Assembly: GCA_052327205.1 (NCBI GenBank)
Contig: JBMRGM010000038.1
Coordinates: 35,650,001 to 35,714,000 of the forward strand
Reading direction: 5' to 3'
Source of the DNA: Somniosus microcephalus
Lineage: Eukaryota
DNA length: 64,000 bases
Position numbers and translations under genes: made by a program. Below the pieces are notes generated by a model. The model was not told where the DNA came from and ran no database searches. It saw only the letters and a program-made list of their open reading frames with translations. Shown in pieces: positions 8,579 through 36,408 of the stretch. How positions within the stretch are numbered: the first letter of the stretch is position 1; each line of letters begins with the position of its first letter.

Positions 8579-8590
8579 GGCCCCCCTGTG
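8579..8590 (-). other. Polypurine tract (short: CACAGGGGGG-CC abutting the 3' LTR)
   Basis: G6 run 2 nt upstream of the LTR TG on the minus strand. Confidence 0.65.
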
Positions 8591-8966
8591 ATACTGATAG
8601 CTTGCTAGAGGTATCAATAATCCTTGGTGAGCAAATTTTCCCTGATTCCCCACGTCCAAACATTCCTGGCACTTAACTATCTATGACCCTCACGACACAT
8701 GCAGTTTCCATTTCCGAAAAAAACGAAAATTACCTTTTGCCCACTTGGACAATCATAGGCAGCATATCTTAAACTATAACACATTCATCTGTCAGATGTG
8801 CAGGGGTTGATACCTCCTTGCACCACCTGCATACACCTTTTATTAATCAAAAAACTTAAGAATGACTATTAACATAACAATATTCATATCCTTAAAACCA
8901 AAAACAAAACACGCAAATGACCAAAATCTAAAAATGGAGGGACGCTTAACCTTCAATACTAGCAGC

Positions 8967-11323: not shown

Positions 11324-11514
11324 ATCCCAGGTTTCTGTAACCAATAAAATGATGTAGCCGGGCTCCCAATAGGTGCTGGCCTAATTAAATGGACGCGCGG
11401 GTTCCTGGACCCCGCTCCTAAACAAGCACACGTACCGGGCAGACTACAAAATCGTACTCTTAACATATCTTAACACCGTATACTTTATATTCCTTAAACT
11501 ATCACCATAATTAC

Positions 11515-14500
11515 CTAACTTAACTTATGTACAGCGCCGCCCTCCGTGGGGCGGCCAACTGAATCCCTGTGAGGGCTGTCGCGCGCCACACCCTGCGGTG
11601 GGGCTGCACTGGCCTTCAGCTTTGATCCCCCGCAGCCTGTCGCTGTTGAACGGGAACCATGCCTTCCTGGGGCTGCTCTAAACTGAGGTTGGGAAAAATG
11701 GGGAGAATCTGGCCAAAACTTTCTGGGCTGGGGCGCTCGAGCCGACCTACGAGGGGCTGCTTTGTGTGGGGCTCCCGGGGCTGATGGACCGGGGGTCGGG
11801 ACTGTCACCGTCACAGCCTGTGGTTCCTCCACAGCTGCCGGCTCCAGCTCCCCTCCCTCAGGCTCCGCCCCCTGGGGTCGGGATTTGTGGCTTCCGACTC
11901 CACCTCACCTGTCCCTACAGGTAGTGAGTCTCCGCCCCCATTCCCTACCTCCCCCAAGCTTGAGTCGAGGGCGGGATCGTCGTCCTCTGACTCTTCCCCC
12001 TCCGTGATTGGGTCTAAGGGGAGGTCGAGCTGTTCGGGCTCTTCCTCGTCCGAATCCCAATCCAGAGGGGAGACCTCCCACTCCGATGGGGTGGCCCCTC
12101 CCTTCAAGCAGGCTACTGTTCCAGCCTGTGTGGTCTGTGACTCTGTTACAGGCTGAGGATCTTTGTTCTCAGACCTGGTCCCTTTTGTTGGCCCTTGTGC
12201 ACCCGGTTTAAACAGTTTACACTGGTTAATGTGAAACCATTTGGTACGTCGGGGCACCTTCACTGCATAAACCATGGGGCTGGCCTTGTCTACAATGCTG
12301 TAAGGTCCCATGTACAATGGTTCAAAACTCCCTACCCTGGCGTAGTTTTGGACCATGACCTGGTCTCCGACTACCCACTCTTGTTGCTTACGAGGTTCCA
12401 GTAACAGTCGGTTTCCCCGATGCTGTCTTCCCATGTTCCCAGCCGCCTGCCCATAAATCTGTTTCAGGCGCTCCAAAAGGGTTTGGACGAATTTGTCTCG
12501 TTTCACCTCTCGGAGCTGGCCCTCAGTGAGCACCGGGGCTAGTACATGGGTGGGTGTTCGCATGATCCTTCCAGTCATTAATTCGTGCGGGGAATACCCC
12601 GTACTTTTGGACTGGCTGGCTCGGATCCCCATGAGGACTAAAGGCAGGACCTCCGCCCATTTCTGGGGCGAGCCCATTGTCTCTTTCCTCAGCTTTTCCT
12701 TGAGGGTCCGATTCATGCGTTCAACAATCCCGGATGACTGGGGATTGTATGCTACGTGCCACTTCCCCTCAATGCCCAAGAGCATGAGGGCGTTCTGCAT
12801 TACTTGACCGGTGAACTGACTCCCTTGGTCGGACTCTACAAAACGGGGGAGTCCCCACCGTGAGAACACTTCCCGAATCAAGATCTTAGCAGTGCCCAGT
12901 GCCGTAGCTGTTCTGCACGGGAAGGCTTCTACCCATTTGGTGAACACATCTACCAGGACAAGGCAGTACTTATATCCTCCCTGGGCGGCGGGCAGGGGCC
13001 CTATGTAGTCGACCTGAATCGACTGCCATGCTCCCTCTACCCTCCTGATGTGCCCCATGGGCATCTTCCTTTTGTGGGGGTCTGGGTTGTTTGCAGCGCA
13101 CACAAGACAGCTTGTGCAGAAATCGCGGACATCGTCCCGAAGTCCCGGCCACCATCCCGCCTGCTCTACCCGCTGCCAGGTAACCTCAGGCCCGGGGTGT
13201 CCCGCCCCTGGACCCTCGTGGGCCAGTTGCAGGAATTCCCTCCGGTGCTGCTGCGGCACAACCCACTGCTCCCCTCGGAACAGCATGCCTTCTTTGACTG
13301 AGAGGGCTGCCGTACTGTACGGACCCTCTACCTGCTTGCCTTCTGTGATGGCTTTTAGGACTGTTTTTAGGGCGGGATCCAGGGTTTGGATGGTCTTTAG
13401 GTCTGGGGGCGGTGTCACCCCTGTGTTCCCTGGAATTCCCTCCCTGCCTTGGATCGCCGCCACGGGTCCGGGTTCATAGGGGTCCCAGAGAATGCCATTG
13501 CGGGCACCCTCCCTGGCTAGCGCATCCGCCTGCTGGTTGCCCTGACTGCGGGGTTCTGTGGTGGAATGAGCCTTCACCTTATGGATGAACACCTCCCCTT
13601 CCTCTCCCACAGCTGCCAGGATCTTTTCTAGCAAGGGCTTAACTGTTAAAGGCCGCCCGTCCGCGGAGGTATATCCGCGTCGGGACCAGATGGCGAGGTA
13701 CTCTGTACACGAATTGCATGTGAACATGCTGTCTGAGCAAATCGTGTATGGGGTTGGGAAAATCTCGGGGTGGGTAACCACGTACGCCACCGCGGACAGT
13801 TCAGCCTGCTGTGCGCTCATAGTGCTGGGGAGCTTAATTGCCAGGGCAATGTTTGCCGCAGGGTCATAAACTCCACACCCTGTGAGTCGTTCGCCAGCAG
13901 ATACTGTGCTAGAACCGTCTACGTAGATTTTGCGGCCTGTGGGGTGTATCCCGGCCCGTAAACCTATGTTGACCTCCCATACCCCTTCTACGGAACACCG
14001 ATGGGCTGTCCCGGGATATGCCATGTTGGCTGCGAGCCTTGGCGCGCAGAGGCCTTTAACTTTGAGATCCATCTGGGAAAGGAGGAGGGTCCAGCGCGCA
14101 ATCTGAGTGCTGCTTACGGTCCCATCCTTAATCCTTCCATCCAGAAGCATCTTTGTGGGGGTGTGATGGGTGAGGAGCGTGATGGGAGAGGTTCCTGTGA
14201 AGATCACTGATCTGTTCACAGCCCAATGCGTGGCCAGGAGATGCCGTTCGCAATTGGAGAAACTCCTCTCTACATCCGTGAGCACCCTGGAGGAATAAAC
14301 TACCGGTCTCAGCTTGCCGTGCCGCTCCTGGAGCAACACGGCGCTCAGGCTGTCCCCACTGGCGGCTACCTCAGAACTCCTCTCCCCCATCTATGGCCCC
14401 TAGGGCTGGCGCGGTCTGCAGATCTCTTTTCAACTTCTCGAATGCTGCCTGGCACCCCTCATCCCAAGACCACTCGACTCCCTTGTGTAAGAGTCGAAGT

Positions 14501-15873
14501 AGCGGGGCTGCTGTGGCAGCATAGTCCTCGATGAAATCTCTGCAGCACCCGGTCAAACCCAAAAAGGACCTTACACCCGTTACTGTGTTGGGAATCGGCA
14601 GATCTTGTATTGATTCCCTTCTGGCCTTATCTATGGCTCTTTCCCCAGCGCGGAGGGCCAGACCCAGGAATTTGACTTCCTGCTGGCCGATCTGGGCTTT
14701 CTTCGGGTTTACTTTGAAACCCTTCCTTTCTAACAGTTCCAACAGTTCGGCTAATAGTGGGCCGTGCTCCTCCCTTGTGTCCGTGAACAGGAGTAGGTCG
14801 TCCACATACTGTACTATCTGGTTGGGCTGGCTAAACTCTTTTAAACTCCCCGCCATGCATTGATGGAAAATGCTGGGGCTGTTGTGAAAACCCTGTGGCA
14901 AGCAGTTCCAAGTGTACTGTTGCCCTTTGAAAGTAAAGGCAAACTTGTACTGATCCTCCCGCCGCAGCGGAATGGACCAGAAACCGTTCGAGATGTCCAG
15001 CACCGTGAACGTGGTCGCCGATGCTGGAATACTCCCTATTAGGTCTGCAACTGCTGCTACCGTGGGCGCGCAGGCTGGGATGTTACTATTGAGGACTCTG
15101 TAGTCCACCGTGGCTCTCCACGAATTGTCCGGCTTCTTTACCGGCCATAATGGGGAGTTCACGTGAGTGGCTATTGTTCTCAATACGCCCTGCTGCACCA
15201 ATGAAGATATTGCGGTCTCCATGTCGGGTTCTGCCTCCTTGGGGAAGTTATACTGCTTTTGGGGTCGGATCATGGGGTCCCCGTCTACGCTGACTTCAAA
15301 CCCAGTGACTCTCCCACAGTCGTGCTTGTGGGTGGCAAACGCGGTCAGATTTTCCGACACACACGCCTGCAAGTTCGTTGGGACGTTCGCTACCATGAGC
15401 TCGAGATCGTAACCTCCTGACAGCTTCATGGTGCACAGGGCCCCCTTTTCTTCCTTCCCTGGGATTACGACTACCTTACCTAAACCGCTCTCGGCTCCCC
15501 AGAGACAGTGATTTCTCAGGTCCACGAGGATCCCGTGTTCCACCAAGAAATCAGCCCCGAGGATGCCTTTTCCACCCCCCTCACTCCACTTCAATAGGAT
15601 ACACGTCCATGTGGTGTGGAGTGCTCCCAGATGAATGGAGAGCGGGATGGAGTACGCGCCAGCCTGTTCTCTGCCTGTGAAACCCACTACTAAGTATGGA
15701 GCCTGGGCGGACAGAGGTGAGGCAAAAGGTTTATCTGTGTGGATCACGGTACACGAAGCTCCCGTATCCAACAGGTAACTACCCTTTTGTCTTTCCACCT
15801 CCATCTCCACCACAGGTCTTCTCCAGGCGTCATAGCGGAGCGGACACAGGTAGACGGGCTGCGCAGGCGTCAG
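11515..15873 (-). pseudogene. pol: pol of ERV copy 1 (PR-RT-tether-RNase H-IN), frameshifted
   Basis: LLDTGA; NSPLWPVKK; LPQGFHNSP; YVDD; YVDGSS..SAQQAEL..SDS; H-H-C-C; QVDYIGP/SDQGSQF/GIVERMN; GPY. A 5-nt deletion (TTCTG) at ~14372 relative to copy 2, and a probable second -1 shift near 11870. Confidence 0.9.
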
Positions 15874-17805
15874 TCATTTAGGTGTTTCGGTTGGGGTCTC
15901 GGGAGCGATAGGGCTGTTGGCGACCGCTACCTTCCCCTGCCAGGTCATCAGAGACCGCATAGTCTCCAAGACTGACTCGATCGTAGCGGGATCCACAACC
16001 GCACCACCCCCTGTTGTTGGGGCAGTGGCTACGGTTGGGTTCTGGACTGGTGCTGGGGCAGCGGTCTGGGCTTGGGCTTGGACTGGTGTTGGGACAACGA
16101 TCTGGCCGTGGGCTAGGACTTGGGCTTGGGCTCGGGCTTGGGCTGCGGCGAACGCTCTCTCTCTCTTATCCTTCCATGGATTTCTACAGTCCTTGCGCCA
16201 ATGACCCTCCTTCCCACACCCGTAACAACTGCTGTTGGCTTGGGGAGGGCGATTTCCCTCCTGATGCCATTCCTTTTTAGCAGAAGCTGCGGGCCTCACC
16301 TCATGCACCTTTCCTTTTACAACAGGCGTTTTCCTACCCTTGTTGTTCCTGTAACTGATCGTGAGCTGATCAAGTACTAGTTCCTCCGTGGAGCGGGCGT
16401 TAGTGGGGTCAAACCATGCTTTGGCCTGCTCCCTCACTATTGGCAAGCAACCTGCTACCAGGCACCGAAGCCAATGAGCCCTTTGTTCATCATTTAGCGC
16501 GTTCCGTTCCGGTCCTCCCGGGCAGCTGCGCCGATACACGGGCCACAACCTTCCGGCGAAAACCCGTGGGGGTTCTCCCTCTAGCTGCACTGTCTTTTCT
16601 AAACAGAGGAACGGAGTTCCGTCACCCTCTCCTATAATCTCCAGGATCTCGTCCCGTAACAACTCATAGTCCCTGTGCCCTCTCTTGCTCTCGTCAGGGA
16701 GACACTGGAGGAGCGAGCTGTCCAGGGAGAACAGCAGCATTTTAGACTGTTCAACCCCGTCGCAGTCATTGACTGCTGCGGTCTGCTCCACGTCCCTGAA
16801 ATGCACGGAGGGATCTCCTGACTCGGAGAGTTTTGGGATGTGACTTATCATTGCCCTCAGCTGTTGTGCGCTGTGGGGCATTATGATCTGATTCACAAGG
16901 GGTCCATCATCGCCATTGTCTTCATTCGGACCGAGCCTCCGGTGTCTAGTTGGACACACCGGCGCCGGTCCCGACTCTACTATCTGGTGTTGCTCTACCT
17001 CAAGAATCTCTTCATCTACCGTCTCCGTCTCCTTCCCCGGAGTCCAAGACTCATCATAAGCAGGAGGCGCAGAGGGTTCGGGGGTTGGTTCCCGAACTAT
17101 CTCTTGTGGAATCGGTCTTTTGGATTCCTTGGCTAGCAATAGCTGGCTCGCTGGTGGATTTATGAGACACACCAACCCGTTTGCCTTGGCTAGGGCCATT
17201 CTCAGGTCCTCTTGCTCCCGACGGCAAGTGCTGTGGTCGGTGCTCTCAGATCTATCCTCCATGGCCATCTTATATGCTGCCCTGGCTCCCAGAAGTTTTT
17301 CCTCTTGGGTCTCTATTTGCTTAGCTAGACGGAAACACCTGTCTCTCATTCTACCTTCACTGGCCTTGGCCTCAATGACCTGACATTTTAAATACTCTAC
17401 CCGGGTTTCGTGGCAGCGAGTTGTGGAGTGGCGTTCCTGATTCAGCGCGTTAAGCGATTCAATCAGTTTCTGACCTCCCGCAACCTTTTCCTCTACGTCT
17501 GTAAGCAACCCTTTGATCTGGGCTGTTTGTGCTGCAACGACTTGGTCCAAAAGCTGGACTTGCTTCTTGTAGCACATCAGCCAGACCGCCTTTTCTACAG
17601 ATTTCTTATGCTCTTTACCCTTTGTCCACTTGATGGCTGCGTCTAGCGGGCGCCTATCCCTTAATAGGTCCGATATCCATTGTTTTGTGAGGTTGACTTT
17701 TCCAAAAACATAATCTGCTATTCTTTCATCCATCACATTTCGTTTATTCAGACCTTGATCTAACACACTACTTTCCTGCTGCCAAGGTCCTGCCGCGGTC
17801 GCCAT
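15874..17805 (-). CDS. gag: Gag (643 aa), intact
   Basis: Coiled-coil N-half, overlapping late domains PSAPPAY, capsid-like region, single zinc knuckle CYGCGKEGHWRKDC. Ends in TGA in frame with pol. Confidence 0.9.
   Translation of the reverse strand: MATAAGPWQQESSVLDQGLNKRNVMDERIADYVFGKVNLTKQWISDLLRDRRPLDAAIKWTKGKEHKKSVEKAVWLMCYKKQVQLLDQVVAAQTAQIKGLLTDVEEKVAGGQKLIESLNALNQERHSTTRCHETRVEYLKCQVIEAKASEGRMRDRCFRLAKQIETQEEKLLGARAAYKMAMEDRSESTDHSTCRREQEDLRMALAKANGLVCLINPPASQLLLAKESKRPIPQEIVREPTPEPSAPPAYDESWTPGKETETVDEEILEVEQHQIVESGPAPVCPTRHRRLGPNEDNGDDGPLVNQIIMPHSAQQLRAMISHIPKLSESGDPSVHFRDVEQTAAVNDCDGVEQSKMLLFSLDSSLLQCLPDESKRGHRDYELLRDEILEIIGEGDGTPFLCLEKTVQLEGEPPRVFAGRLWPVYRRSCPGGPERNALNDEQRAHWLRCLVAGCLPIVREQAKAWFDPTNARSTEELVLDQLTISYRNNKGRKTPVVKGKVHEVRPAASAKKEWHQEGNRPPQANSSCYGCGKEGHWRKDCRNPWKDKRERAFAAAQARAQAQVLAHGQIVVPTPVQAQAQTAAPAPVQNPTVATAPTTGGGAVVDPATIESVLETMRSLMTWQGKVAVANSPIAPETPTETPK
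17787..17804 (-). other. Primer-binding site, tRNA-Arg(UCG)
   Basis: TGGCGACCGCGGCAGGAC, 4 nt from the LTR, is complementary to ...GTCCTGCCGCGGTCG-CCA, the vertebrate tRNA-Arg-TCG 3' end as recalled. Confidence 0.8.
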
Positions 17806-17808
17806 TTC

Positions 17809-19369
17809 TGTAGGGGGTTTCTCTTGCTCGTTCTGGTCTCCTGCCAGGCGTTGTGCAATAATTACCCTTGAGTGGTTTGACCCACTCCCCCTATGGTTCT
17901 AGACCTTGGACTTAGATGCAGAGAACTGTAGTGCAGAGAAAGGACTCAATAGACCAGGTTGAATAGCACGAAATGGATGCTTTTATTTTAAACAGTTTGA
18001 AGCATTACAAAATACATGTCATAGGCACAGATTAAAGTAACTACAATCATGCACAAATTTATGAACTTGACTCTATGGAAATGGGGAACACACGGCACAT
18101 CGAAAAAGGGAAAACACATTACGATTACCCTTAACTCCCTCCCCTATACCTAAACTAAGTTTTGACCTGAGGAACTTGGGATCATGCTCACCACTCTCAA
18201 AATCGCGAAAAAGGGGGTTCGCAGCCTTTTGGCACCGCTTTCCGTCGTCACGTGGATTTGGAAACTTCTGGCGCAGTCGATATTCTCTCTCTCTCTCTCT
18301 CTCGAGGCGGCGGGGTAGACACAGCCTCGATGAGCGCTCGTCAAGGTTGAAGATACCTAAGTCTGTTGTCGATTTTTGTTCATGGAGCAGAACAACAACC
18401 CAATGGGATGTTGAGATACGGAAGTGTCAGGCCCGGAATGTCCTTTCTCTCTGGCCTGGATCGTCGGTTTTCCTGAGGGTGTCTTCTCCTTCGGCCTGGG
18501 TCATCGATGATCTCCCGACCCCAGTACCCGGGCCACCCTCGTCGTCTTCTCGTCGTGGCCGAGCCTTGTCTGGCTGAACACCGACCACGTTGTCTTTTCA
18601 CCGAAATTGTCCGTCCGAAGCGTCTTTAAAAAGACGAAGCGTCTTCATCGATTCCGAAGCTACCGAGGTAGAAGAGGCGCCGATCCTGGATCGGTGTAAC
18701 CGTCACCGTCCGTCCTTCATTCGTCCGCTCGTTCCGTCGATGACTCCAATCGTTCTCCGATTCACTCCGTAACTTTTGATGGACTTTCAATCCATAGTTA
18801 TACTCTTTTGGGACAGTCTTATCTCCCGCCAAATCATAGTCCTGTCTTTGTATTAATTTTGGCGGGCAGAAATCTCCGCAGGGGCGCTTTGTCTTGTAAC
18901 GGGAGCCGGTGATAACTTAACTGGCCTTCCTGGCCGATAATGTCTTTTAATGTCTTTTACATTGTCATCGCGACTCGGTTCGCATATTGATCGGTCCGGA
19001 GATTTTCCTTGATGGCTGTTAAACGGTTTCTCCTTTGTACAATAAATGGGTATGAGTGTTTTTGCATTGTCCGCCCATATCTTGATGGGCCCCATCCTGT
19101 ACTTAGAATCCATTGAATATGTATGCTGTTTCCCTGAGTTTCGGTTTCCCGATACTGGCTTTCGCGGGCTTACTGTCTTCAATCCACAAGCCTGTCTGGC
19201 TTGCAGTAACAGAAATCAAACGGTCCAGAAAACTGATCACGAGGCCCGGCGGCCATTTTGTATGCCCTTTTATCAAAGGTTTTTCTGTGCAAGCTTACTT
19301 TGGTCAATAAACTGTCTTATTTTATCCTGTTTTCTTGCGTGATTATTGCTGAAAATTTCGAATCTTACA
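17809..19369 (-). repeat. 5' LTR of ERV copy 1 (1561 bp)
   Basis: Highly similar to 7005-8578 except a non-homologous ~115-nt block (~18355-18470) and (CT)n length. Confidence 0.95.
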
Positions 19370-20620
19370 CAAGCAAACCCTGCGCAACAACTTGTGATTA
19401 ATAAAGTGGTGAAATTAGCAAATCTGTAATGGTTATTGCTTGCATTTGGTCATTGATCAAGGCTGGGGATTTGCATTCTGAATACAGGAAGTTTTCCATA
19501 TTTATTTACTTCCATTAATGATTCTTGACCCAGTGGCATGCCTACTGAGTGTATTTAATCTTTTCACCAGATATCAGGCTACTGGGGTATGTGCCCCATT
19601 TCACTAGTTTATTAACAGCAACTTGGAAGTGTTTGCCTGGAGCGAGTTATCTTGGCCTGCTGTTTGTCCCTTGTTAAGGAGGTTTGTGGGGCTCTTGTGG
19701 AGTGAGGTTAGTGGGACTGATTATTGAGCCCCATGAAATTGCAACGTTCTGGAAATTTTAATGCTGGGATTAGTTTATTACTAGAAGTGGAGGTTCTTTA
19801 GTCCTCTATAACTGACTGGGATAATAAGTCTACATGGGGTAGATATCCATATTCTAAAAATGATAGCGGCACTAGCGAGGGTGCAAAAAACATTTACTAG
19901 GATGATTCCAGAACTGAGATTATTCTTATTAGGAAAGATTGACCTGTTTGGGATGCCTTCTTTAGGAAAGAGAAGGCTGAGGGTGTTTAAAATTATGACT
20001 GGGTTCGATGGGTTAGATATCGAGATGTTTCCACTTGGGGGCAAGACCAGAACTAGGGGCCTGTAACTACAAGGTAGTAACTAACTAATGACTCCAATGG
20101 TGAATTCAGGAGAAACTTCTTTACCCAGAGAGTGGTGAGAATGTGGATCTCGCTATCACGGAGTGGTTGAGGCGAATGGTGTAGCTGCATTTAAGGGGGA
20201 GCTCTAAGCATGAGGGAGGAAGGATATGCTGTTTGGGTGAGATGAAGGGTGGGAGGAGGCTCGTGTGGAGCATGGACTAGTTGGACTGAATAGCCTGTTT
20301 CTGTGCTGTCGATGGCTTGTTAACCTGCAGGATTAGTCACCTGAGGAACTGCATCTCTGAAGGCCCCTTCAATGGCTTTCGGTGTTGGCCGTGGCTCAGT
20401 GGACAGCGCTCTAGCCTGAGTCGGAAGGTCGTAGGTTCAAATCCCACTATAGAAACCTTGAGTACAAAAGCCAGGCTGACACTCCCAGTGCTGCACTGTC
20501 GGAGGTGCCATCTTTCGGATGAGAAGTTAAACCGAGGCCACTTCTGGCCCCTCGGGTGGATGTAAAAGATCCTGTGGCACTTTTGGAAGAAGAGCAGGGG
20601 AGTTCTTCCCTCTGACCAAT
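19370..20620 (+). repeat. Orphan 3' end of another ZP3 unit (last codons, polyA signal, downstream flank); paralogous to 5757-7004
   Basis: Starts CAAGCAAACCCTGCGCAACAACTTGTGATTAATAAA and aligns with 5757-7004 with scattered substitutions and indels. Confidence 0.9.
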
Positions 20621-20750: not shown

Positions 20751-22856
20751 CATTTTTTAATTTGTTCATGGAGTGTGGGTGTCACTGGCAAGGCCTGCAT
20801 TTATTGCCCATCCCTAGTTAGCCTTGAGAATGTGGTGGTGAGCTGCCTTCTAGTCCAGTTGGTCAGTGTGCTGTTGGAGAGTTCCAGGATTTTGACCCAG
20901 TGACGATGAAGGATCGACGATATACTTGCAAGTCGGGATGGTGTGTGACTTGGAGGTGGTGGTGTTCCCATATGCCTGCTGCCCTTGTCCTTCTAGGTGG
21001 TAGAGGTCGCGGGTTTGGGAGGTGCTGCCGAAGAAGCCTTGGCGAGATGCTGCAGTGCGCCAGTGCTGGAGGGAGTGAATGTTTAAGGTGTTGGTGTGAC
21101 ATCCTGAATCTGGGTATGGCGCTGTATAAATAAGATTGTTCTTTCTAAACATCTGACGTGAGTTTGGGACCTACAATAAAATATAATTATCCCTAACCAA
21201 CATACTAGGTCCCCAATAGGGATTCAGTTGCCGTACTGGATCTCCAACAGCAGGTGGGGATAGAATCCATATCAACTTAACGAGCACAGTTTTGTATCTC
21301 TTGTGGCTGACCCTGGTCAGTGAATGCTGGCTGAAATCTGCAGTAGAACTGTTGTCAATACTTAACCACTTACATTTATGTAGCCCCTTCAACGTACTGA
21401 AATGTCCCAAGGTGCTTCACAGAAGCCCTATTGAATAAAATTTGACACCAAGCCACATACGGAGATATTAGGGCAGATGACCAAAAGCTTGTGCAAGAGG
21501 TAGGTTTTAAGGAGGAGGGAGTGCTGGAGAGGTTTAGGGAGGGAATTCCAGAGTTTGGGGCCCAGGCAGCTGAAGGCAAGGCTGCCAATGGTGGAGCGAT
21601 TACATAGAAACATAGAAGATAGGAGTAGGCCGCTTGAGCCTGCTCTGCCATTCAATGCGATCATGGCTGATCATCCAAATTCAGTACCCGATCCCTGCTA
21701 TCTCCCCATAACCCCTTGATCCCTTTAGCCTTAAGAAATGTATCCAACTCCTTCTTGAATATATCTAATGAATTGGCCTCTGCTGCCTTCTGTGGTAGAG
21801 AACTCCACAGGTTCACCACGCTGTGGGTGAAGAAATTCCTCCTTCAGCGACTGGTGCACAAGGTCACCCAGGTCTCGTTGCACTTCCCCTTCTCCCAATC
21901 TATTGCCATTCAGATAATCTGCCTTCCTGGTTTTGCCACCAAGTGGATAACCTCACATTTATCCACGTTATATTGCTTCTGCCCAATCACCCAACCTGTA
22001 AATCATCCTGTAGTTTCTCGGCATCCTCCTCACAGCACACACGCCCACCCAGCTTTGTGTCGTCTGCAAATTTAGAGATATTGCATCAATTCCCTTGTCT
22101 AGATCATTAATATATATATTGTGAATAGCTGGGGTCCAAGGACCGATCCCTGCGGTACCCCACTAGTCACTGCCTTCCACTCAGAAAAAGACCCGTTTAT
22201 TCCAACTCTTTGCTTTCTATCTGCCAACCAGTTCTCTATCCAAGTCAGTACCTTGCCCCCAATCCCATGTGCCCTAACTTTACATACAAATCTCTTATGT
22301 GGGACCTTAATCGAAAGCCTTCTGAAAGTCCAAATACACCACATCCACTGTGTTAAGTATGTGTATTGTATTGAACAATTAACACAAAGACTTAAACGTA
22401 TAACTCAAACAAGTCTTTACTGGTTGGAGGTAGGGACTATACTGAATACAAGATTACTGCACAGTGCTTATATACCGATGTGTTCACCCCCGGTATTACG
22501 TCTACAGCAGCCTGAGAAAGTAGTACATCTCTTAAGGTGGAACAGGCTTAAGCTCTCTTAAGGTGGAACAGGTTACATACACAACACTCCTCCCTTCTTA
22601 GCTTTATAGTCATCCCCCCATTTAACATAACGTAATAACATATATACATATATAACTTCATGTTTAACGTAACATATCACAGATTCAGTCTCTGCGGAAA
22701 ACAGTTCACAGATTCAATCTCTGTGGTGTAGTCGGTTCACGTTACTCATTCAATAGTCCTTTCATGGATTTAACAGCTTGAACTTCCGAACTGATTTGGC
22801 TCCGTTCGGAGGGACCACGTGTGTGATCTGGTAGAGGTGATAATGGTTCAGATGGG

Positions 22857-25172
22857 TCATCTTCTGTTTTTACTTTTCCTTTTCTGCTTCTTGGAGACTC
22901 TCTGGGCTCCATTGTCAGCTGCCACAGCTGCCAGCTGCATGCGCAGTTCCTCCTTCTCTTCCTCCTGTTTCCGTCGTAGAGCCAGCTTCTCCCGATGTTC
23001 CGTAGACTTTTGGTGCTCCTCCATGATTTCTGCACTTTGGGAGTCGAAGTTACAAGCTGGGCAGGACAGGGCATCGTAATATTCGGTGTCGTCCACCAGG
23101 TCATGGTAATATTCGGTGTCGTCCTGAACTAGACCAGTGAGAGGGTCGTCTATTTCCTCCATACCCAGCTGGACGTTAGCCAGCTCTTGTTCCAAATCCA
23201 GACATCTTTCCTGAAGAGACTTCTTCATGTGTACCTCTGCATCCAGCTTTTTCTGGGCTTTCAGCAAATCGTTTACTAGTGACCTCATTTGTGATTTTAA
23301 TACTTCAACTTCCTTTGGAGATTGATTGATCGGACTATGCAATCCCTCTACCCGAGCGGCTGTTTCAGCGGTCTGTTGTTCTACATTGACGTGAGTCAGC
23401 GTACTTTTGGCATCCAATGGCTGCTCTGTTGCAGTCGTTTCAGTCTGTGTCGTCACATCAGCCATCTCAATGACTTTTGAGAGCTCCGAACCCTTTTCCT
23501 TTGAAGATCGCAGCTCGTGTTCAAGTTTTTCCCATTTCAGAGTCTTGTCCCTCAGCATATGAAGGAGTTGGCTGACCGTTAACTCTTCTGACACCAGATT
23601 ATGGCACGCACCTTCAGAACCTGAATCAGCTTTGATTCATTCGGCCTCCTCGCGCAGATGGTTGGTGTGCTCCTGCTCCATTTTCTCCATCAGTTGCTTC
23701 TGTTGCCTTTCCAGATTCTCCCACTCTGTAACAAAGAACTTTTTTATTTCATTCATCTCTTGCTCAAAACGGCGAATCATTTGTTCTAATTGCTGTTGTA
23801 GTTTGAAATGGAGTTGAGTTCGAGCCCAGTGTCCCTCAAAAATGTGCATATCAGTAGACTTGACAGACTCAGAATTCTCTGTTAAACTATGTTGTTGTTG
23901 CTCAGTGGAATTCTGTGCTGAAACTTTGTCTTTTGCACATGGGTTGGTCTTACCATCATCAGTTCTAGAGTCTGGGCTGATTATCTGCACCGAGTTCTCA
24001 CTCTTTATGGCTTTTAGTGAATGCCAGTCCATATTTATGTTTCTAAACCACTCCCGGCCTAGTAGTGGTGGACCTCCCTCCGGTAGCACATATAAGTCCA
24101 TTATTTGACTTCCTTCGCCCTTGTTGGCCACTGCAACCTTTATTGTCCCGATGGGGTACACTCTCTGCCCCGTGTAGGTTGTCAATATAATCTCCGTATC
24201 CTGTAGGGGAATATGTTGGAATAACCTTCTGTAATCTTTCTTATTCATGACCGACAATGCCGATCCAGTGTCCAATTCCATTTTTACTTGGACTCCTTCT
24301 ATCTGAAGAGTAACCCAAATTGTCTGGAGGTCTGCACCCTTACCAACGTTGAGTACCCTTAAGCTAGCCAGTTCAATACTGCTTAAGCCAGCCAGTTCAT
24401 TACTGCTAGCGTCTGAATCGGACTCCTGTTCGGCCACCTTGTGTACCTTTGCGTATTTCCCTTGCGGTGACTTCTTGTTGCTGGTCTTCTTCCCTGACCT
24501 GCATACTCTAGCTATGTGTCCAAGCTTACCACATGTTCTGCATTCTTGGTTTTTAAACCAACACTGGTTCTGATCATGCGTTGTCTTTCCACAACGATAA
24601 CATTTAACAGAACTCACACCCAATTTGTGTGCACTGAGCTCCGGTGACCGTAGCTGCATTACTGCCGTGCCTCTCGCTGCGGCTTCGTGTGCTGCTGCCA
24701 TAGTGACCGCCTTCTCAAGCGTCAGCTCATTCTCCTCGAGCAGTCGCTTTTGTGTATCCTGTTTAAATAAACCACACACAAATTTGTCTCGTAGTGCATC
24801 TGTCAGTCCCATTCCAAACTGGCACTATTTCGCTAATTTACGCAATTCCAGCAAATATTCAGCATTGCTTTCATGCTGTAGCTGCCTTCTGTCGTAAAAT
24901 TTAAATCGTTCCGCTAGCATCAGCGGCGTGGGGTTTAGATGATCTTTCAGGACAGTAACAATCTCATCGAACGTCTTACCCGCCGGTTCATCTGGTGATA
25001 ACAGGTGTTTCAATTGCCCGTATGTCTTCGCACCCATTAAATTTAATAATGTTAGAGCTTTATCTTGGTCACGAATTTTATTGGCCTTACAATAATTTTT
25101 TACTCTTTCAACATATATGGCCCAATCTTCGAGGTCACTATCAAAGGTGCTAATATTCCCGTGTTTAGGCAT
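22857..25172 (-). pseudogene. Gag-protease fused in frame to STK10/SLK-, optineurin- and DNAJC21-like segments (771 codons, two in-frame stops)
   Basis: ORFs 24825-25172, 23637-24812 and 22857-23594 share one frame (TAG 24825-27, TGA 23637-39). Mag-type Gag ([24 protein letters not shown]), two CCHC knuckles, ELDTGS..LLGREW protease, then coiled coils and a C-x2-C-x12-H-x5-H finger. Confidence 0.8.
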
Positions 25173-25309
25173 TGTAGATTTGCAATTTCTCAGATTTTAT
25201 TTTCTTTACTTGTTATCAAAGATGGCGGCTTCCCGCTCTTGCCGTCGTCCTCCGCCCACAAAATGGCGGTTTTCCCGCGCTTGGCGGTCTTCATCCGTCC
25301 CCCGACGCC

Positions 25310-25660
25310 GTCTCCCTTCAGCCCCCGAGTGCGGCCCTTATCTTCGCCGCGATCGCCCGAGTGCGGCCCTTATCAGCGGATGCAATCGATGGCCCGGCTG
25401 CGCCTCGCACTTGAAAGCGGCCCGGCCCTTATCAGTGCTTGCGATCGATGGCCCGGCTGCGCCTCGCACTCCAAAGCCCTTATCTCCCGATCGCGATCAA
25501 TGGCCCGCGCTGTGCACCGCGGCTCTCGCGCCTTCAATTTCTGCAGCCGCTGCCCTTTCAGCACGAGTGCGGCCCTTATCGGTGGTTGCGATCGATGGCC
25601 CGGCTGCGCCCCTCACTTCAAAGCGGCCCGGCCCTTATCTGCCTATCGCTATCGCCCTGT
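25310..25660. repeat. GC-rich ~59-bp imperfect tandem repeats in the Gypsy 5' leader
   Basis: Recurrent GGCCCTTATC...GCGATCGATGGCCCGGCTGCGCC units. Confidence 0.8.
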
Positions 25661-27244
25661 ACCTGTCTTCCCCAGCCCTATCTTCTACTCCGGTTCACAA
25701 GCTGATGGAGGCTTCAGGGTCCTAATGCCTGTTGCTTCCATTGGGGTGGTGAGAGGTGAGGTTTGAAACCTCTCTTCAACCGCCGTGGAATAACTGCCGC
25801 AGGGTAAGAACCTGACTCATCGCCAGTGTTAAGTATGTGTATTGTATTGAACAATTAACACAAAGACTTAAACGTATAACTCAAACAGGTCTTTACTGGT
25901 TGGAGGTAGGGACTATACTGAATACAAGATTACTGCACAGTGCTTATATACCGATGCGTTCACCGCCGGTATTACGTCTACAGCAGCCTGAGAAAGTAGT
26001 ACATCTCTTAAGGTGGAACAGGCTTAAGCTCTCTTAAGGTGGAACAGGTTACATACACAACACACTGGTTCTCCCTTATCTATTTTACTAGTGACATCCT
26101 CAAAAAATTCCAGTAGATTAGTCGAGCACGATTTACCTTTTGTAAATCCATGTTGACTTTGTCCGATCCTGTCTCTGTTTTCCAAGTGCTCTGCTATTAC
26201 ATCTTTTATAATGGACTCTAGCACTTTCCCCACTACCGATGTCAGGCTCACCGAGACCTGTAATTCCCCGTTTTCTCTCTACCACCTTTTTTGAATAGTG
26301 GGGTAACATTAGCTACCCTTCAATCCATGGGTACTGTTCCAGAGTCCATCGAATGTTGGAAGATGATCAGCAATGCATCTACTATTTCTAGGGCCACTTC
26401 CTTAATTACGTTAGGATGTAGATTATCAGGCCCTGGGGATTTATCGGCCTTCAATCCCATCAATTTCCCTAACACCATTTCCCTACAAATACTGATTTCT
26501 TTCAGTTCCTCCCTTTCATCGGACACTATGTTCCCCGACATTTCTGGGAGGTTATTTGTGTCCCCCTTTGTGAAGACAGAACCAAAATATGTATTTAATT
26601 GGTCTGCTATTTCTTTGTTCCCCATTATAAATTCCCCAGTTGGGGATGCTCAAGAGGCCAAAATTGAAGGAGCGCAGAGCTTGCGGAGGGTTGTGGGGCT
26701 GGAGGAGGTTGGAGGGATTTCAAAACAACGATGAGAATTTTAAAAATCAAGGCGTTGCTTAACCGGGAATCAATGTAGTTCAGCGATGGGTGAATGGGAC
26801 TTGGTGTGAGTTAGGATACGGGCAGCTGAGTTTTGGACGGCCTCAAGTAAATGGCGGGTAGTGCGTGGAAGGTCAGCATTGGAATAGTCGAGACTACAGG
26901 CGAATAGAGATGTGGCAGTCAGTCTCACCTGGGTTTAGTGAGTGTCTACACAAAGCCTCATACACAACATACAAAAAGTTGATGTGCATTCACACTGAAG
27001 TCTTCCAATAAATATGTATAATCACAGAAGTGCTTGTTTGAGTAAACCAGTTAACATTTTATACACAGCCAGCACACCTCGCCTCACCCCCTAAACAGCT
27101 GCCATCAAAGCCCAGTTGCTGTATTATTTTGTGGGTCTGTGCTCGGGTTAGCAGCCCTCCAGGATTGTCCCAGAGTCTCCAGGAATTAAAAGATTCATCT
27201 CTGGGAGCCTGGCACGTCCTGAGTTCATGATAGGTGCGGTATTC

Positions 27245-28980: not shown

Positions 28981-30594
28981 AATCCTCTCCCTCAATTGAG
29001 CTGCTTTATTTGTCAAAAAATGCTTCAATAAAATTGAAATGTGACTTGGTTGAGTTACAGTCTTTGGTGTTGAACTGGTTTTTAAATACACTGTCATGGT
29101 GGTTTGACCTAAGTTGTCTAAATGACACTAGACCAGTTTTGGAGGCCTATATTTAACTGACAATTTCACCACACACCGCTCAGTTTTGGGTAGTTGAAAG
29201 TAGGCATTTGCACCTGGAATAAGATTGTGGCCTTAATGGGATGGCAACTGGAATCATACAGCACAGAAAGAGGCCATTCGGCCCATCGTGCCTGTGCTGG
29301 CTCTTTGAAAGAGCTCTCCAATTAGTCCCACTCCCCCCAGCTCTTCCCCATATCCCTGCCATTTTCACCTCTTTGTATTTATCCAATTCCCATTTTTGAA
29401 AGACACTATTGAATCTGCTTCCACCGCCCTTTCAGGGAGCGTGTTCCAGATCACAACTTCTTCTTTATATTAGAAGTCTCCTCATCTCTGGCTCTCTTGT
29501 CAATGATGTTATTTACTAACCCTTCTGTCAGTGGAAACCGTTTCTCCTTATTTACTTTAATCAAAACCCTTACCATTTTGAACCCCTCCCTTGACCTTCT
29601 CTGCTCTAAGGAGAACAATCCCAGCTTCTCTGCAGTAATATTGTGACCTTTGTAAAGGGATGAAAGCGATGGGGAGTTTCTGCCATCTTTCTAGAGCGAG
29701 TAGATGGGGTTACAGACACCCAGCTAGGAGTCCGCTGTGAGAAGGTTCCAGTCCCACATCGGGGTCAAGAGACTAGACCAAAGCAGCATCTCCTTAATTG
29801 GCCATCTTGCTCCTTGTCCACTGGCGGTAGGTGTGTCTTGGCCTCGTACTGTCACTCTGCTGGCTCTGTTCCACATTTAACATCCCTTAAAGGTTAGTTA
29901 CAATTGCCTTTTTGAATATAGTGATGTAACCTACCACCCACCATCACACATGGGTGGGTAGTGGAATCAAACAGTGCTGAGGGGATTGGTAAATGATCAA
30001 TTATCTTTTTCATTGCACTCTGGCTTCTGGTGCATTTCCCCCACCCGCCCAAAATCCTTCGCCCACCCCACCTCCCATCACCCCCTGTTGGTGGCCGTGC
30101 CTTCAGACATCTGGCACCTCAGCTCAGACATTCTCTCCCTAAAACCCTCAACCTCTCCTCCTAATACATTGCTTCAAACCTACATCAGTGTCCAGGCATT
30201 TACCTGTCCTAATGTCTCCTCCTTTGACTGTCACGTTTTTGTCTGATTTACGTGAGTTGAATGCTTTGCTTAGTTGAACATTGGGCGGTGTAACAAGGCA
30301 CCAATGCAACCAGATGGTGAGGATAAAGGGGCAGGAATATAAGATGGCCATTAACAGATCAAATGAAGAATTTAAGAGGACATTCTTTACACAGAATGTG
30401 GAACATGGAGTGGTTGAAGCAGATACATTTGGAGTTGAGATACAGATCGACCATGATCGAATTGAATGGCAGAACAGGCTCGAGGGCCTGAATGGACTCC
30501 TCCTGTTCATTTGTAAAGGAGGCTGGTAGCATAGATGAGGGAGAATGAAATAGAGGGCTCTGTGGGGTGGGGAGTTAGATAGAAAGCAAAGCAC

Positions 30595-31685
30595 GCTCTA
30601 CGCTGTCCCATCAAACACTCCCAGGGCAGCAAGAGTACGGGTTAGATACAGAGTAAAGCTCCATCTACACTGTCTCATCAATCACTCCCAGCGCAGGTAC
30701 AGCATAAGTTAGATACTGTTGTGTCCCCTTGTGTTTTTATTACTATGTAATACAGACACTTTTAACTCCTTTTTAGTTTACAGCTTTTACTCAGTGCTTT
30801 CATGATGTTGCTGCCGCATGGTGCGGAGTGATACAAGATGTCCGACCTTGCACTGTGCACTGCCTGACACAGTGTGCCACATAGCAGTATAAATGCACTA
30901 ACCAAAGTAGTTCCATATAACAATGTAACAAGTAGTTCCATTGAATAATGTGATAATATAACGATGTAACAGATACAGGTTACAGCATGAGTTAGATACA
31001 GAGTAAAGCTCCCTCTACACTGTCCCATCAAGCACTCCCAGTGCAGCTACAGCGCGGGTTAGATACAGAATAAAGCTCCCTTTACAATGTCACGTCAAAA
31101 TCTCCCAGGGCAGGTACAGCACGGGTTAGATATAGAGTAACGCTCCCTCTACACTGTCACTTCAAACAGTCCCAGGACACGCACAGCATGGGTTAGATAC
31201 AGAGTAAAGCTCCCTCTGCACTGTCCCATGAAACACTCCCAGGGCAGGTACAGCACGGTTAGATACAGAGTAAAGCTCCCTCTACACTGTCCCATCAAAT
31301 ACTCCCAGGACAGGTACAGCACGGGTCAGATACAGAGTAAAGCTCCCTTTAAACTGTCCCATCAAACACTCCCAGGGCAGGTACAGCATAGGTTAGATAC
31401 AGAGTAAAGCTCCCTTTAGACTGTCGCATCAAACTCTCCCATGGCAGATACAGCATGAGTTAGATACAGAGTAAAGCTCCCTCTACACTACCCCATCAAA
31501 CACTCCCAAGGCAGGTACAGCACGGGTTAGACACAGAGTAAAGCTCTCTTTACAATGTCCCATCAAACTACTCCCAGGGCAGGTACAGCACGGGTTAGAT
31601 GGAGAGTAAAGCTCCCTCTACACTGTCGCATCAAACACTCCCAGGGCAGGTAGAGCACGGGTTAGATACACAGTAAAGCTCCCTG
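30595..31685. repeat. 67-bp minisatellite array interrupted by a solo LTR
   Basis: Same unit as 318-826. Confidence 0.9.
30717..30971 (-). mobile_element. Solo LTR (255 bp), TSD GATAC
   Basis: TGTT...AACA termini, GATAC at 30712-30716 and 30972-30976; empty site at 581-585 in unit A. Confidence 0.8.
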
Positions 31686-33382
31686 TGCTCTGCGCAAAAA
31701 AGGTCCCAAATCCCAACCTCAGAGGATCAGACCCTATTAACCACCTCCCTCAGATTTCATGTTCCCACAGCTCGGCCATTTGTGGATCCTCCCCTTCCTT
31801 CACTCCACCATTGGCACCTTGGGATGTTTTTCTGCATTAAAGGTGCGATATGATGACAAGTTGGTGTTGTTGTTCCAGTGTGACAGTCTCCATTTACCAT
31901 CACACTCTTTATCAGACTGTATGAAACAGGACAATTGCAATTAGAGTGACTTTGCCTCTATTAGGGGGTTTTAATTGGATAGACTGTTTCCCCCTCGTGA
32001 TGTCCTTTTATTAATCAGCAGGGACGGGGGAGCTTGTCCAGTGGGTGAAGCTCAGGCCCACACTGATCATCTATAAGGGGTCCTCCCCACAAGGGACAGG
32101 ACACCACTAACAAGAACAAAGAGCCTGTCCGAACTAATGTCCCACAGTACACATCAACTGATTAAGGTCCAACTTTCCGATCCGGTTCAATGAGGCAATG
32201 ATCCCGTCCGGATCCAGCCACTTGTAGAAGCTTCTGGAAAACCCATTGGACTCCGAGTGTTTGCACGCCAGGCTCCCTGGAGAGGGAGCGGGCAATGCCC
32301 ACCGGTACACTCGAGGCCTCCCGCAACCGATGGGCACCGCAGGGAGTGGAGAGTCTTATCGACACGAGTAACATAATTATGATTTACTTTTATGAGTTTC
32401 CTGTTGTTTTGTCGAAAGAACATTCTGTGTTTGAGTTCCTTTGTTAGTTGTGCCAACTTAAAGAGGGAGGCCAGGTATAAATTCGTTCCTCTGTTGATGA
32501 CACCGGGACAACCCATGTCATTTTATGGCTCAATTAAAGAAATCCACATTAGACATAGGAACATGGGAACAGGAGGAGGCCATTCAGCCTCTCGAGCCTG
32601 TCGCCTCATTCAATGAGATCATGGCTGATCTGGGACCTAACTCCATATACCCGCCTTTGGCCCATATCCCTTAATACCTTTGGGTATCAAAAATCTATCA
32701 ATCTCAGATTTAAAATTAACAATTGACCCAGCAACAACTGCCGTTAGCGGAAGAGAGTTCCAAACCTCTCCCACCCTTTGTGTGTAGAAGTGTTTCCTAA
32801 CTTCACTTCTGAAAGATCTGGCTCTAATTTTTAGGCTATGTCCCCTTGTCCTGAACTCCCAACCAGCGGAATTAGTTTGTCTCTGTGTACCCTATCGGTT
32901 CCCCTTAATATCTGGAAAACTTCAATCAAATCACCCCTTAACTTTCTAAATTCCGAGCTTCTCACCATTGGGAAAGTACGCTGATCTATCCTTTTTAGAT
33001 CCAAAGTGGATGACTACTGTATTAATGGTGCCCATCAAAATGTGCCCTTGTGCGACTCTTTCAGGTGGGGGTGATTGACCAAATTGTAATAGGCCCTCCT
33101 GGCAATAAATCCATCAGTTCTGTCTTTCTTTTCCTTTTTTTATTATTTTTTTTTCTTTTTTTTCAAGTTTTATTTCAAGTTTTATTAATTTACAGTTGAT
33201 TAGTTTAATCAAAAGAGCACCCCTAATTGGTCGAATGTTTTCTTAAGTTACAGTCAATTGCTTTAATCAAAAAGAGCAGCCAAATTTTAAATTAATTTGT
33301 TAAGGTTCCTTTAAAGTTTTATTTATAAACTAATTGGTTAATCACCCACACAAAAAAGATTACTGTAGATTTGCTTAACCAC

Positions 33383-33520
33383 CCAATCAAAAGGGTCACT
33401 CCGATTGGTTGAATTAAAATAGGCCCTCCTGGCAATAAATCCATGAGTTCTGTGATTGGGTAGAAATTGTGGAGCTTGGGGTTAATCGGCTCAATGTGAC
33501 TGCAGGTTGTGTGTATAAAA
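33383..33520 (+). promoter_or_regulatory. ZP3 copy B promoter (CCAAT boxes, TATAAAA 33514-33520)
   Basis: CCAAT 33383, ATTGG 33404 and 33455, TATA about 50 nt before the ATG. Confidence 0.65.
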
Positions 33521-33564
33521 GGTGCTTGTTGATGGGTGCAGGGATAGTTGAGTTGTTTAGTATC

Positions 33565-36408
33565 ATGGGGGATTTTGTAGTGAGGGGTTTGCTCCCAGTG
33601 CTGGTGTTAGTTGGAGCTGTTTGTTCCTCTGATATTTGGCAACAGTTTGGGGGCCAGAGGTTTCCATGGAGAAGAGTAAAAGCCACCCCTGGGCCTCAGC
33701 GAGTCCCTTCTCCTGGGTCTCCCTTTGGCTCCGGTTTCAGTGTGTCTGAGGGGCGCAGTGTGTCTCCACTGCAGACTGTGAGGGTGCAGTGTGGAGAGCA
33801 CAACCTGCTGGTCAGGGTACAGATGGATTTATTTGGAACCAGGCACCTGATTAAAGCTGCTGACCTGACCCTGGGGACGGCAGGTTGTCCGTCAACTGGG
33901 ATCTACTCTCAGAACCACACTGTCCTCTTTGACTATGGGCTGCATGAGTGTGGCAGCAGAGTGAAGGTAATGTGATTCCTCAACTCTTGCTCTAAGCTTG
34001 GTGTCTGGAATAGACCCAACTTGTTTTTCCTACCCTGATTCCTGTCTCCTGCTTTTAAAACCTCCAGACTTGTGTTGAATTATGTATTGTCCTTTGCTTT
34101 AACTGGTTTTCCTGAGTGTCTCCAACTTTGATCTCGGCCTTATTGGCCTTGATCCTTCACTTAGTTCTTAACTTTTCCTTCCTTACATCCTGTCTTGTGG
34201 ATTTTCAGGTCACTGGGGGTTTAGTTATCTACAATATTGAGTTTTTTTTCTTCCACTCCTTTGTATCAGAATACAGGGGAGTCTGGCTTAAATGAGGCTT
34301 TAATCTTGTTCTATTCATTGCTCTAAATTATCAACCTGTGGCTCCTTTTATTGAAGTGAAGCTGTCCTTTCATTGAATCTTTATTCTGTTTAATTGTCTT
34401 GTGCTTGCAATCCCCCTCCTTGCTTTAGCTGCTGAGGCTGCACAACTTCCAACCACCTGAGTAGAATGTTGTCCATTTCTGAACCTGATGTCTTTCAGAT
34501 GTCTGGAGATTTCCTGGTCTACGCCACCCACCTGAACCACACCCCCAAGGCCCATGGATCTGTCATTGTGAGAACTAATGGAGCTGTCGTTCCCATTGAG
34601 TGCCACTATTTTAGGTAAGATTCTTTACACTGTCGCAAATAACGTCTACAGCTGGTGTAGTTCTCTGACCTTGTCCTAAAATGGCTCCGTTGTCTTTCCA
34701 GGAAGGGCAATGTGAGCAGTAACCCGATCAAGCCCACCTGGATCCCGTTCAGCTCCACCAAGTCTGCAGAGGGGCTTCTGTCATTCTCTCTGCGCCTAAT
34801 GAACGGTATGTGATGGGTGGATGTGGAATGATTTCCTGTAGTCACCCATTGGCAGTTGTACCCAGTCTCCAACCCTTGTCCCTCTTGTACTTCAGATGAC
34901 TGGCTCACAGAGCGCACCTCGACTGTCTACTACCTGGGTGACCTCATTCACATTGAGGCCTCTGTTTCAATGACCAACCACATGCCCCTGAAGCTCTACA
35001 TTGATCGCTGTGTCGCTACGTTGAGCCCAGACGAGGACTCCGCCCCGAGATACAGCATCATTGACTACAATGGGTAAGGAGCACTCTGCTTTCTCCAGCT
35101 GATCCTGTCTCAATGGCTTCGCTTGATTCACTCCATGTCCCTTTCTTAAAATTATTTCTTCAGTTGCCTCCTGGACAGCAAAGCTGAGGACTCCTTCTCA
35201 ACCTTCGTGTTGCCAAGAGACGAGCGTGAGCTGGACAAGCTCCACTTTGACTTGGATGCCTTCCGCTTCTTTGGCGATGATCGTTCCTTGGTAAGAGGAA
35301 GCCGACCGCTGCAAAGTATTTACAGCCAATCTGCATAACTGGGTTGTGCTCCACATGAGTGTCCTCCCACTCCTCTTCATCTAACTCTTCAACATATCCT
35401 TCTATTCCTTTCTCCCACCTGTGTTTATCTAGCTTCCCCTTAAATGAATCTACACTATTCGCCTCAACCACTCCCTGTGGTAGCGAGTTCCACATTCTCC
35501 CCACTCTCTGGGTAAAGAAGTTTCTCCTGAAATCCCTCTGCTGTATATCCTGTGATCCTATGAATCACTAACATTAACCACTTTTCTCTGTTTCTAGCCA
35601 GCTTGCTATCCATTCTGCTACTTGTCCCCTGAATCCACCTGTTCATTGAGTTCCCAAGTTGGGAGGGAGTCACTATATAATGACTTGTGTTGACTGTGTC
35701 CCTCAGATTTTCATCTCCTGTCACCTGAAGGTTGCTGCAGTGGATCGGAGAGATTCCATGAGCAAAGCTTGTACTTTCCAGAAGATGCAGAATGTGTAAG
35801 TGCCCCCTCTCCCTCAGGGATGTGTTGTGTGGGGAAGTGATGCCCAACCTGATTGTGAAACTGATTCTCTTGTTTAGCTGGGCTCCATTGGAAGTATCCA
35901 ACAATGACGTTTGTGCCTGTTGTCACTTGGGCAACTGCAGTGCCACAAGGGAGTTTGGATTTGATTCCAGAGGAAGGAGGGATCTTGTACCTGAAGCTGG
36001 TAGGACATTGATTCTCTAGATGTTGGAGGTTGCCCTTTACCCTCTCTAACTGGAATGTTTGATATTGCAGGGAGTGATGCTGAATTGAAGTGGGAGGGTG
36101 AGGCCTCCCTTGGACCCCTGGTCATTCTGGACACTGATGTGACAGACCTGGCAACCGAGTCCCTTAATGAGGTTGAGCAACGGATGGCGGAGAGGTCTCC
36201 AGGTGGTGAGTTGGCCGACTGCTAGTTTCCATTTCCCCCTCAGTATTCCCTTCACTCACTGTTGGTTTCTCATTGCTGTTTAGGTGCGGAGTCTGAGGTG
36301 GTCCTGATGGTGGCCCTGACTGTGACTGCTGTCTCTCTGATCTCTGCTTCGTTGATCGCCTTGTTCCTGTACAGGAAACGCAAGCAAACCCTGCGCAACA
36401 ACTTGTGA
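33565..36408 (+). CDS. zp3: ZP3 copy B, 9 exons, 465 aa, intact
   Basis: Exons 33565-33966, 34499-34614, 34702-34805, 34896-35073, 35164-35290, 35707-35795, 35878-35999, 36071-36205, 36284-36408; same lengths and phases as copy A. Confidence 0.95.

Follow-up and report, generated by a model that had tools for sequence, protein, structure and literature searches.

In transducing retroviruses of the gag-onc type, the replication genes have given way to host exons joined to Gag, and the viruses are helper-dependent. In metazoans, retroposition mediated by long terminal repeats (LTRs) has been described (Tan et al. 2016, PMC5131818); in the parts of that paper considered here, a partial spliced mRNA takes the place of the internal open reading frames (ORFs) of an element, with microsimilarity at the switch points and both LTRs kept, further non-autonomous rounds occur, and some cases involve several parent genes. 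The same parts describe maize Bs1, an LTR element containing exonic pieces of three host genes. Pseudogenes derived from circular RNA (circRNA) are characterized by reversed exon order and a back-splice junction, and LTR sequence is enriched in the flanks of the mouse circRFWD2 copies (Dong et al. 2016, PMC4897178, in the sections considered). Lastly, single-exon OPTN copies that match several exons, with long interspersed nuclear elements (LINEs) or LTRs within 1 kb, appear in the main-text parts covered of a shark genome preprint (10.1101/2024.09.09.611499). The locus described here has likenesses to these systems. It lies within a stretch of 64,000 nt from Somniosus microcephalus (contig JBMRGM010000038.1, positions 35,650,001 to 35,714,000; the whole stretch is hereafter called the window), and is a 3.7-kb non-autonomous Gypsy-type LTR element in which spliced pieces of the host genes OPTN and STK10 are joined to Gag.

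The element is read on the minus strand as a single frame from 25172 to 22857, in which Gag and its CCHC knuckle are followed by the aspartic protease, the PKK coiled coil of STK10, the OPTN piece and a zinc-finger tail. The window copy contains two in-frame stops, at 24827 and 23639. A preliminary description had assigned a peptide at 23181..23600 to the central coiled coil of OPTN, captured on a Gag fusion, and on translation of the window this peptide is found in the frame 23636-22857. The identification holds. When the last 257 amino acids of a naturally open copy were compared with a protein database, all 20 matches were cartilaginous-fish (shark or ray) optineurins and unrelated coiled coils were not the best matches; the best match was a shark OPTN (69% identity, E 2.9e-46). 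A search of representative proteins with the piece gave seven matches, of which the best was shark OPTN and none was a fusion protein. No match at E 1 was obtained in the PDB with the window piece, and an Atlas search returned uninformative coils only.

The host OPTN gene of the same genome (C17, ~85.87-85.91 Mb) was located via its NEMO domain and mapped exon by exon. The window contains spliced host OPTN at 23152..23634 (minus strand), a slightly wider span than first described, and this consists of part of coding exon 3 followed by exons 5-8. The residues covered are 228-384 together with 131-144, the latter weakly. There are five blocks, all on the minus strand: 23634-23592 (part of exon 3, 91% nucleotide identity to the host), 23598-23492 (exon 5, 94%), 23493-23322 (exon 6, 76%, with a 21-nt gap), 23324-23206 (exon 7, 87%) and 23207-23152 (start of exon 8, 91%). 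The three host GT-AG introns between exons 5-8 (about 0.55, 2.0 and 2.5 kb) are missing, leaving three exon-exon joins as in an LTR-mediated retrocopy. The ~420 nt of the original assignment thus span several host exons, spliced and fused in frame behind Gag, and it is virtually certain that the segment is a real capture of spliced host OPTN. The fusion to Gag is also borne out. What the first account had overlooked is that the frame contains three host pieces, of which OPTN is one, and that the family as a whole carries at least five cargos, OPTN included.

The host gene itself (C17 85884786-85885360) contains two surplus single bases, in A runs at the edges of exons 5 and 6, that would shift its frame. 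The second is absent from the X1 and X2 contigs and from 12 of 13 reads of run X20. Both are likely to be assembly errors, and errors of this kind would also depress the count of open element copies.

On the 5′ side of OPTN, 23626..24004 (minus strand) holds host STK10 sequence in four pieces, spliced or with deletions, that encode the PKK coiled coil (87-95% nucleotide identity to exons on C8; PF12474, E 3e-10). The in-frame stop at 23639-23637 falls within this stretch. A further STK10 remnant at 22745..22865 (minus strand, 86-93% identical to the host exons for amino acids about 326-390) derives from exons upstream of those of the 5′ pieces, so the order is permuted; nearly all of it lies beyond the stop at 22859-22857. 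A longer PKK cargo in a sister element is 95% identical to shark STK10. SLK was considered as the source of PKK and rejected, as the best 120 matches listed are STK10 wherever they are named.

The simplest sister cargo is STK10 in permuted exon order. It begins inside a large exon, passes through three further exons and then the exon that precedes the large one, and returns to its starting point. The back join is exact, from the donor of the last exon to the acceptor of the first. The circle so defined has five exons and 1,245 nt, giving 415 codons without a stop. When the cargo is compared with the circle written twice, 1,259 nt align at 98.8-99.4%, and the full lap enters and leaves the circle at the same 11-14 nt, in each of the three copies tested. 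The back-splice motif is present in 17 of the 19 PKK loci examined, and exact copies of the junction occur 922 times in the genome; in the window copy the junction has been overwritten by OPTN and the permuted order alone remains. Comparison of five elements with the host gene revealed no parent STK10 sequence from outside the circle exons, and no tandem exon duplication was seen in the 80 kb of the host gene examined. The STK10 cargo is likely to be a captured circRNA: a reverse transcriptase travelling once around a circular template would be expected to produce just such a single lap, entered and left at one and the same short word. Trans-splicing is a possible alternative source of the permuted order. 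Back-splice reads would also arise from the 922 genomic copies of the junction. Separately, an intron-free STK10 3′ end among LINE fragments (L083; C3, 354.66 Mb) is a distinct processed copy.

Sister families were found by searching for the PKK family and for OPTN stretches that are absent from the window, and they include apparent intermediates in the assembly of the cargo. Relatives with a full complement of Gag, protease, reverse transcriptase (RT), RNase H and integrase are present in the genome (L197, L191/L192). The cargo of the sister elements occupies the interval that runs, in these autonomous relatives, from the protease/RT linker to the integrase tail. Loci L177-L186 carry OPTN residues 131-428 or 131-406, with a divergence from the host of 2.5-3.6% in the three for which it was determined; L167, L172 and L174 carry residues 131-384; in L168, L173 and L175 a zinc finger is added, and L169 has in addition the tail of the window type. 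The window family, which has lost residues 145-227, is last in the series. The switch points share short words with their partners, of 9 nt at the STK10/OPTN entry and 8 nt at the OPTN/STK10 exit, and the point of the exon 3-to-5 deletion has a shared word of 7 nt with one mismatch. A host piece in place of internal ORFs, microsimilarity at the switches and junctions shared between copies are all features of LTR-mediated retrocopies. The stem leading to the window family is 0.31 in gag compared with 0.055 in OPTN, where the placement of the long branch in the gag tree is uncertain, and there is a step in identity near codon 370-390, at the end of the protease. Together these suggest that the cassette moved onto another Gag-protease/LTR chassis.

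The third host piece is a degenerate C2H2-jaz zinc finger with an acidic/basic tail (22874..23150, minus strand). A host gene on C1 (4.79 Mb) has two exons, with proper splice edges, that match the window at 23025-22928 (82%) and 22901-22874 (100%) and a sister copy at 98% and 93%. PF12171 is found in a sister copy (E 9e-9), and Atlas neighbours include a ZUO1-domain cluster at 0.87. The 5′ part of the host gene is beyond an assembly gap; from its motifs we take the gene to be DNAJC21-like. A DnaJ search found no domain near it, a zuotin-domain search led to another gene, RAD1 synteny did not lead to it, and two sequence patterns gave no match. Its last exon has no match in the PDB or Pfam, and the tail has none in the protein database. 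Apart from this gene, the first Rad1-matching exon (C40, 6.88 Mb) recurs at 75 further places beside purine-rich repeats (L239-L245), and none of the seven places inspected belongs to the LTR family.

Other sister elements carry further cargos. In-frame Ig I-set repeats, with titin as the best PDB matches, occur at loci L084-L098, and L088, L096 and L097 have a Cys/His-containing in-frame insert. L209, L210 and L216 have an in-frame Myosin_tail_1 coil, presumably cingulin-like, and a strongly diverged copy (L169:3-2183) has a further helical insert in frame.

The structure of the carrier is that of a non-autonomous Ty3/Gypsy element. The LTRs are 236 nt each, of the form TG...CA, at 25827..26062 (5′) and 22351..22586 (3′), both on the minus strand and differing by three mismatches. 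They are flanked by a 5-bp target-site duplication (TSD), at 26063..26067 on the 5′ side and with the same five bases at 22346..22350 on the 3′ side. A motif resembling a primer-binding site (PBS) adjoins the 5′ LTR (25809..25826, minus strand), with nearly the same motif in other copies, and a polypurine tract is present at 22587..22602 (minus strand). We take the PBS and the 5-bp TSD to resemble those of the Mag clade of Gypsy. Gag occupies 24400..25172 (minus strand; zf-CCHC above cut-off), with the stop of the window copy at 24827-24825, and is followed by the protease at 24042..24314 (minus strand; PF13975 E 2e-5 and PF13650 E 7e-5, both just below the curated cut-offs). No RT, RNase H, integrase or env was found between the LTRs by translation and Pfam; the RT-RNase H-integrase unit of an autonomous Ty3/Gypsy element is seen instead in the relatives named above. 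The element interrupts a LINE reverse-transcriptase fragment, the flanks of which match consecutive residues (to 347 and from 354) of one LINE ORF. The empty site is represented in RNA reads from other LINE copies, which join 22345 to 26063.

The family is large. A 26-nt word across the STK10/OPTN junction has 1,631 exact matches in the genome (834 and 797 in the two orientations), compared with none for the reversed control. Forty of the first 100 copies in the C1 list were sampled, and those ranked earlier were for the most part passed over. Both LTRs are present in 38 of the 40, and 32 of these 38 have a perfect TSD. The family is young, because the LTR pairs differ by 0.37% on average and 17 pairs are identical. 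Half of the sample (20/40) is open from the start of Gag to the natural end of the frame. One further copy (L032; C38, 36.11 Mb) is 99.95% identical to that of the window and has its TSD and stop position in common, and is a segmental duplicate rather than a new insertion.

The element is represented in RNA. In run X19 the OPTN bins are covered to a depth of 470-1235 on the probable sense side and 11-51 on the opposite side, even though the genomic copies are split almost evenly between the two orientations. In run X3 none of the element's 30 bins is left uncovered, and in runs X1-X11 (four studies, three organism labels) a fraction of 0.48-0.71 of the words of the cargo stretch is present. 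RNA reads also reveal a variant that lacks 60 nt, in frame, across the STK10/OPTN junction (window 23588-23655), and a few hundred reads join a different sequence to OPTN exon 5; these suggest further subfamilies.

Preservation seems stronger for the frame than for the residues. On the lineage of the window, nine of ten junctions and indels are in frame. The indels shared among the 40 copies preserve it (a 24-nt loss in 18, a 33-nt loss in 11), and a longer tail occurs in eight copies, five of which are open end to end. By contrast, eight of 12 private indels break the frame (in 37 well-aligned copies, three badly aligned ones being omitted), although some of those of 1 nt may be assembly errors. 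Selection on residues was examined by shuffling the substitutions between sites that agree in base and in CpG state. For the window copy, the OPTN piece differs from the host by 30 amino-acid changes where 34.1±2.8 are expected (P 0.10); six further members of the family give P 0.05-0.22 and 13 older copies give 0.09-0.84, and since the copies share ancestry these are not independent tests. Between families, Gag-protease has 88 changes where 152.9 are expected, and none of 300 simulations was as low. Gag-protease is therefore conserved, while the OPTN codons drift near neutrally. An initial dN/dS of ~0.4 relative to host OPTN was discarded, as it included codons out of frame at the two surplus host bases and ignored the mutation spectrum.

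The OPTN piece is spliced host sequence, and we think it probable that it was acquired by template switching of RT and that it serves as filler keeping the frame open in a young non-autonomous element rather than as a working decoy. The open frame is likely to be kept for stability or packaging of a Gag-Pol-like message. The order of events would have been as follows. An autonomous Gag-Pol element would have lost RT, RNase H and integrase to one lap of STK10 circRNA; OPTN exons 3-8 would then have taken the place of part of the lap, apparently by template switching, and would have been followed by trimming, capture of the zinc finger and internal deletions. The cassette would finally, in all likelihood, have moved to a different Gag-protease/LTR chassis and been amplified there. 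Copies would be mobilized in trans by the RT and integrase of autonomous relatives, with the element's own Gag probably favouring its own RNA (cis-preference), and the protease would cut the cargo off at the former start of Pol. With somewhat less assurance, we favour the broader view that a Gypsy lineage exchanged its entire pol for one circRNA lap and became a frame-selected, mobile platform for exon shuffling, each step of which is still in the genome. This view, taken as a whole, includes thousands of young transcribed copies bearing in-frame mosaics of STK10, OPTN, Ig, myosin-tail-like and zinc-finger sequence.

A number of points weigh against these readings. Between 45 and 60% of random microhomologies between these genes would be in frame, rising to 85% in one small class; a hand calculation puts the in-frame excess at about P 0.005-0.05, and a long frame is what first drew attention to the element, which is an ascertainment bias. 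Selection for an open frame is thus modestly supported. The cargo is not proven neutral. The STK10 piece has 18-19 changes where 24-25 are expected (P 0.01-0.03 in three related copies), indicating some constraint, and the deficit in OPTN, though not significant, is in the same direction. Run X20 shows little strand bias over the element, and the RNA reads are not assignable to individual copies. The exact autonomous helper was not found, the nearest RT-bearing elements being about 65-75% in gag.

The preliminary description had speculated that the captured fragment acts as a decoy. The OPTN coil might oligomerize with host OPTN and so shield particles from selective autophagy or TBK1 signalling in a dominant-negative manner. 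OPTN does oligomerize, according to the part of PMC5962687 considered. The abundance of sense transcripts in run X19, the half of sampled copies that are open and the slight deficit of amino-acid changes are in keeping with such a role. So is the loss, in the most amplified family, of OPTN residues 145-227, which older families retain and which we take to contain an LIR-like (LC3-interacting) motif. However, LIR-keeping families are numerous too (1,005 first-look candidates, 40 scored). The piece also lacks the NEMO-like N-terminal region (residues 44-111), presumably TBK1-binding, together with CC2-LZ/UBAN (497-590) and the zinc finger (641-666). All the OPTN stretches with solved structures (29-106, 144-178, 504-591 and 636-667) are missing from it, and structural overlap is confined to a NEMO fragment over its last 40 residues. 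The codons change at close to the neutral expectation, and sister families have been amplified with other cargo in place of OPTN, be it STK10 by itself, Ig repeats or a myosin-tail-like coil. A decoy is therefore unlikely, and the suggestion is not upheld by the sequence.

Slightly less likely still is selection for shape, whereby any long helical or rod-like tail would aid assembly or dimerization of the Gag-protease precursor, and coiled-coil cargo of any origin would be favoured. STK10 PKK, OPTN, the Myosin_tail_1 piece and another helical piece are all coiled coils, and the weak constraint on STK10 would fit. Yet Ig repeats and zinc fingers are carried as well, and mRNAs of coiled coils, being GAG/GAA-rich, would probably share short words with STK10 in any event. 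Pure hitchhiking, in which neither protein nor frame matters and the codon-phase bias of microhomology, together with ascertainment, accounts for the in-frame junctions, would accommodate the high null rate and the last junction of the window family, which is out of frame, but is improbable given that shared indels keep the frame whereas most private ones break it.

Elsewhere in the window, tandem units ~13 kb apart (1-6900, 30500-37600 and 43700-50700) make up an array of zona pellucida genes, in which an exon at 33439-33975 encodes a ZP-N domain. Another LTR element (7000-19400, minus strand) has Gag, a retroviral-type protease, RT, two RNase H matches and integrase, with ORFs 11380-10625 and 10673-8967 that have no Pfam match. 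An inverted copy of it, 92-96% identical, lies on the plus strand at 57000-64000 and runs off the window end. A LINE frame of 985 open codons with endonuclease and RT occupies 52321-55278.

No description of this family was found in the open literature, a search that left subscription papers, repeat databases and preprint supplements outside its scope; the parts consulted of PMC13320880 and 10.64898/2026.06.26.734816 contain nothing on it. The mechanism is known, as LTR-mediated retroposition and from Bs1, while the scale, the serial in-frame capture and the circRNA lap were not found there. The shark genome preprint treats its single-exon OPTN copies as retrogenes, among lineage-specific gene duplications that it discusses in relation to longevity, and its main-text parts covered make no mention of the Gag fusion, copy number, STK10 or circRNA; its supplements may say more. 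Where many intronless copies of OPTN or STK10 are annotated in a large shark genome, they may be cargo of transposons rather than adaptive paralogues, and if the platform view is correct this would apply to some apparent shark gene duplications, OPTN included. Unlike the gag-onc retroviruses, the shark element has no env, its relatives are of Gypsy type, and there is no sign of selection for activity of the cargo.

In the parts of Tan et al. (PMC5131818) considered, LTR-mediated retrocopies number a handful per species (5/7 zebrafish retrocopies), whereas the shark lineage has thousands of copies, a Gag-protease-cargo frame that is open in half of them, and preserved intermediates. For circRNA-derived pseudogenes, the sections of PMC4897178 considered call the mechanism mysterious and count 33 copies; for shark STK10 both switch points and a full lap are visible, pol is replaced in frame, and there are 922 exact junctions. 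If the circRNA origin is true, the switch points and intermediates reveal a route by which an LTR element can make a copy of a circular RNA, thereby addressing a step left open in the parts considered of the paper that defined these pseudogenes, and on the platform view the mechanism would be direct retrotransposition of circRNA. Bs1, as covered in those parts of PMC5131818, has 1-5 copies with one piece out of frame. The shark family has at least 1,631 copies in a vertebrate with three host pieces in one frame, and is thus a Bs1-like system amplified hundreds of times more, in which selection of cargo for frame, shape or function is testable on thousands of copies.
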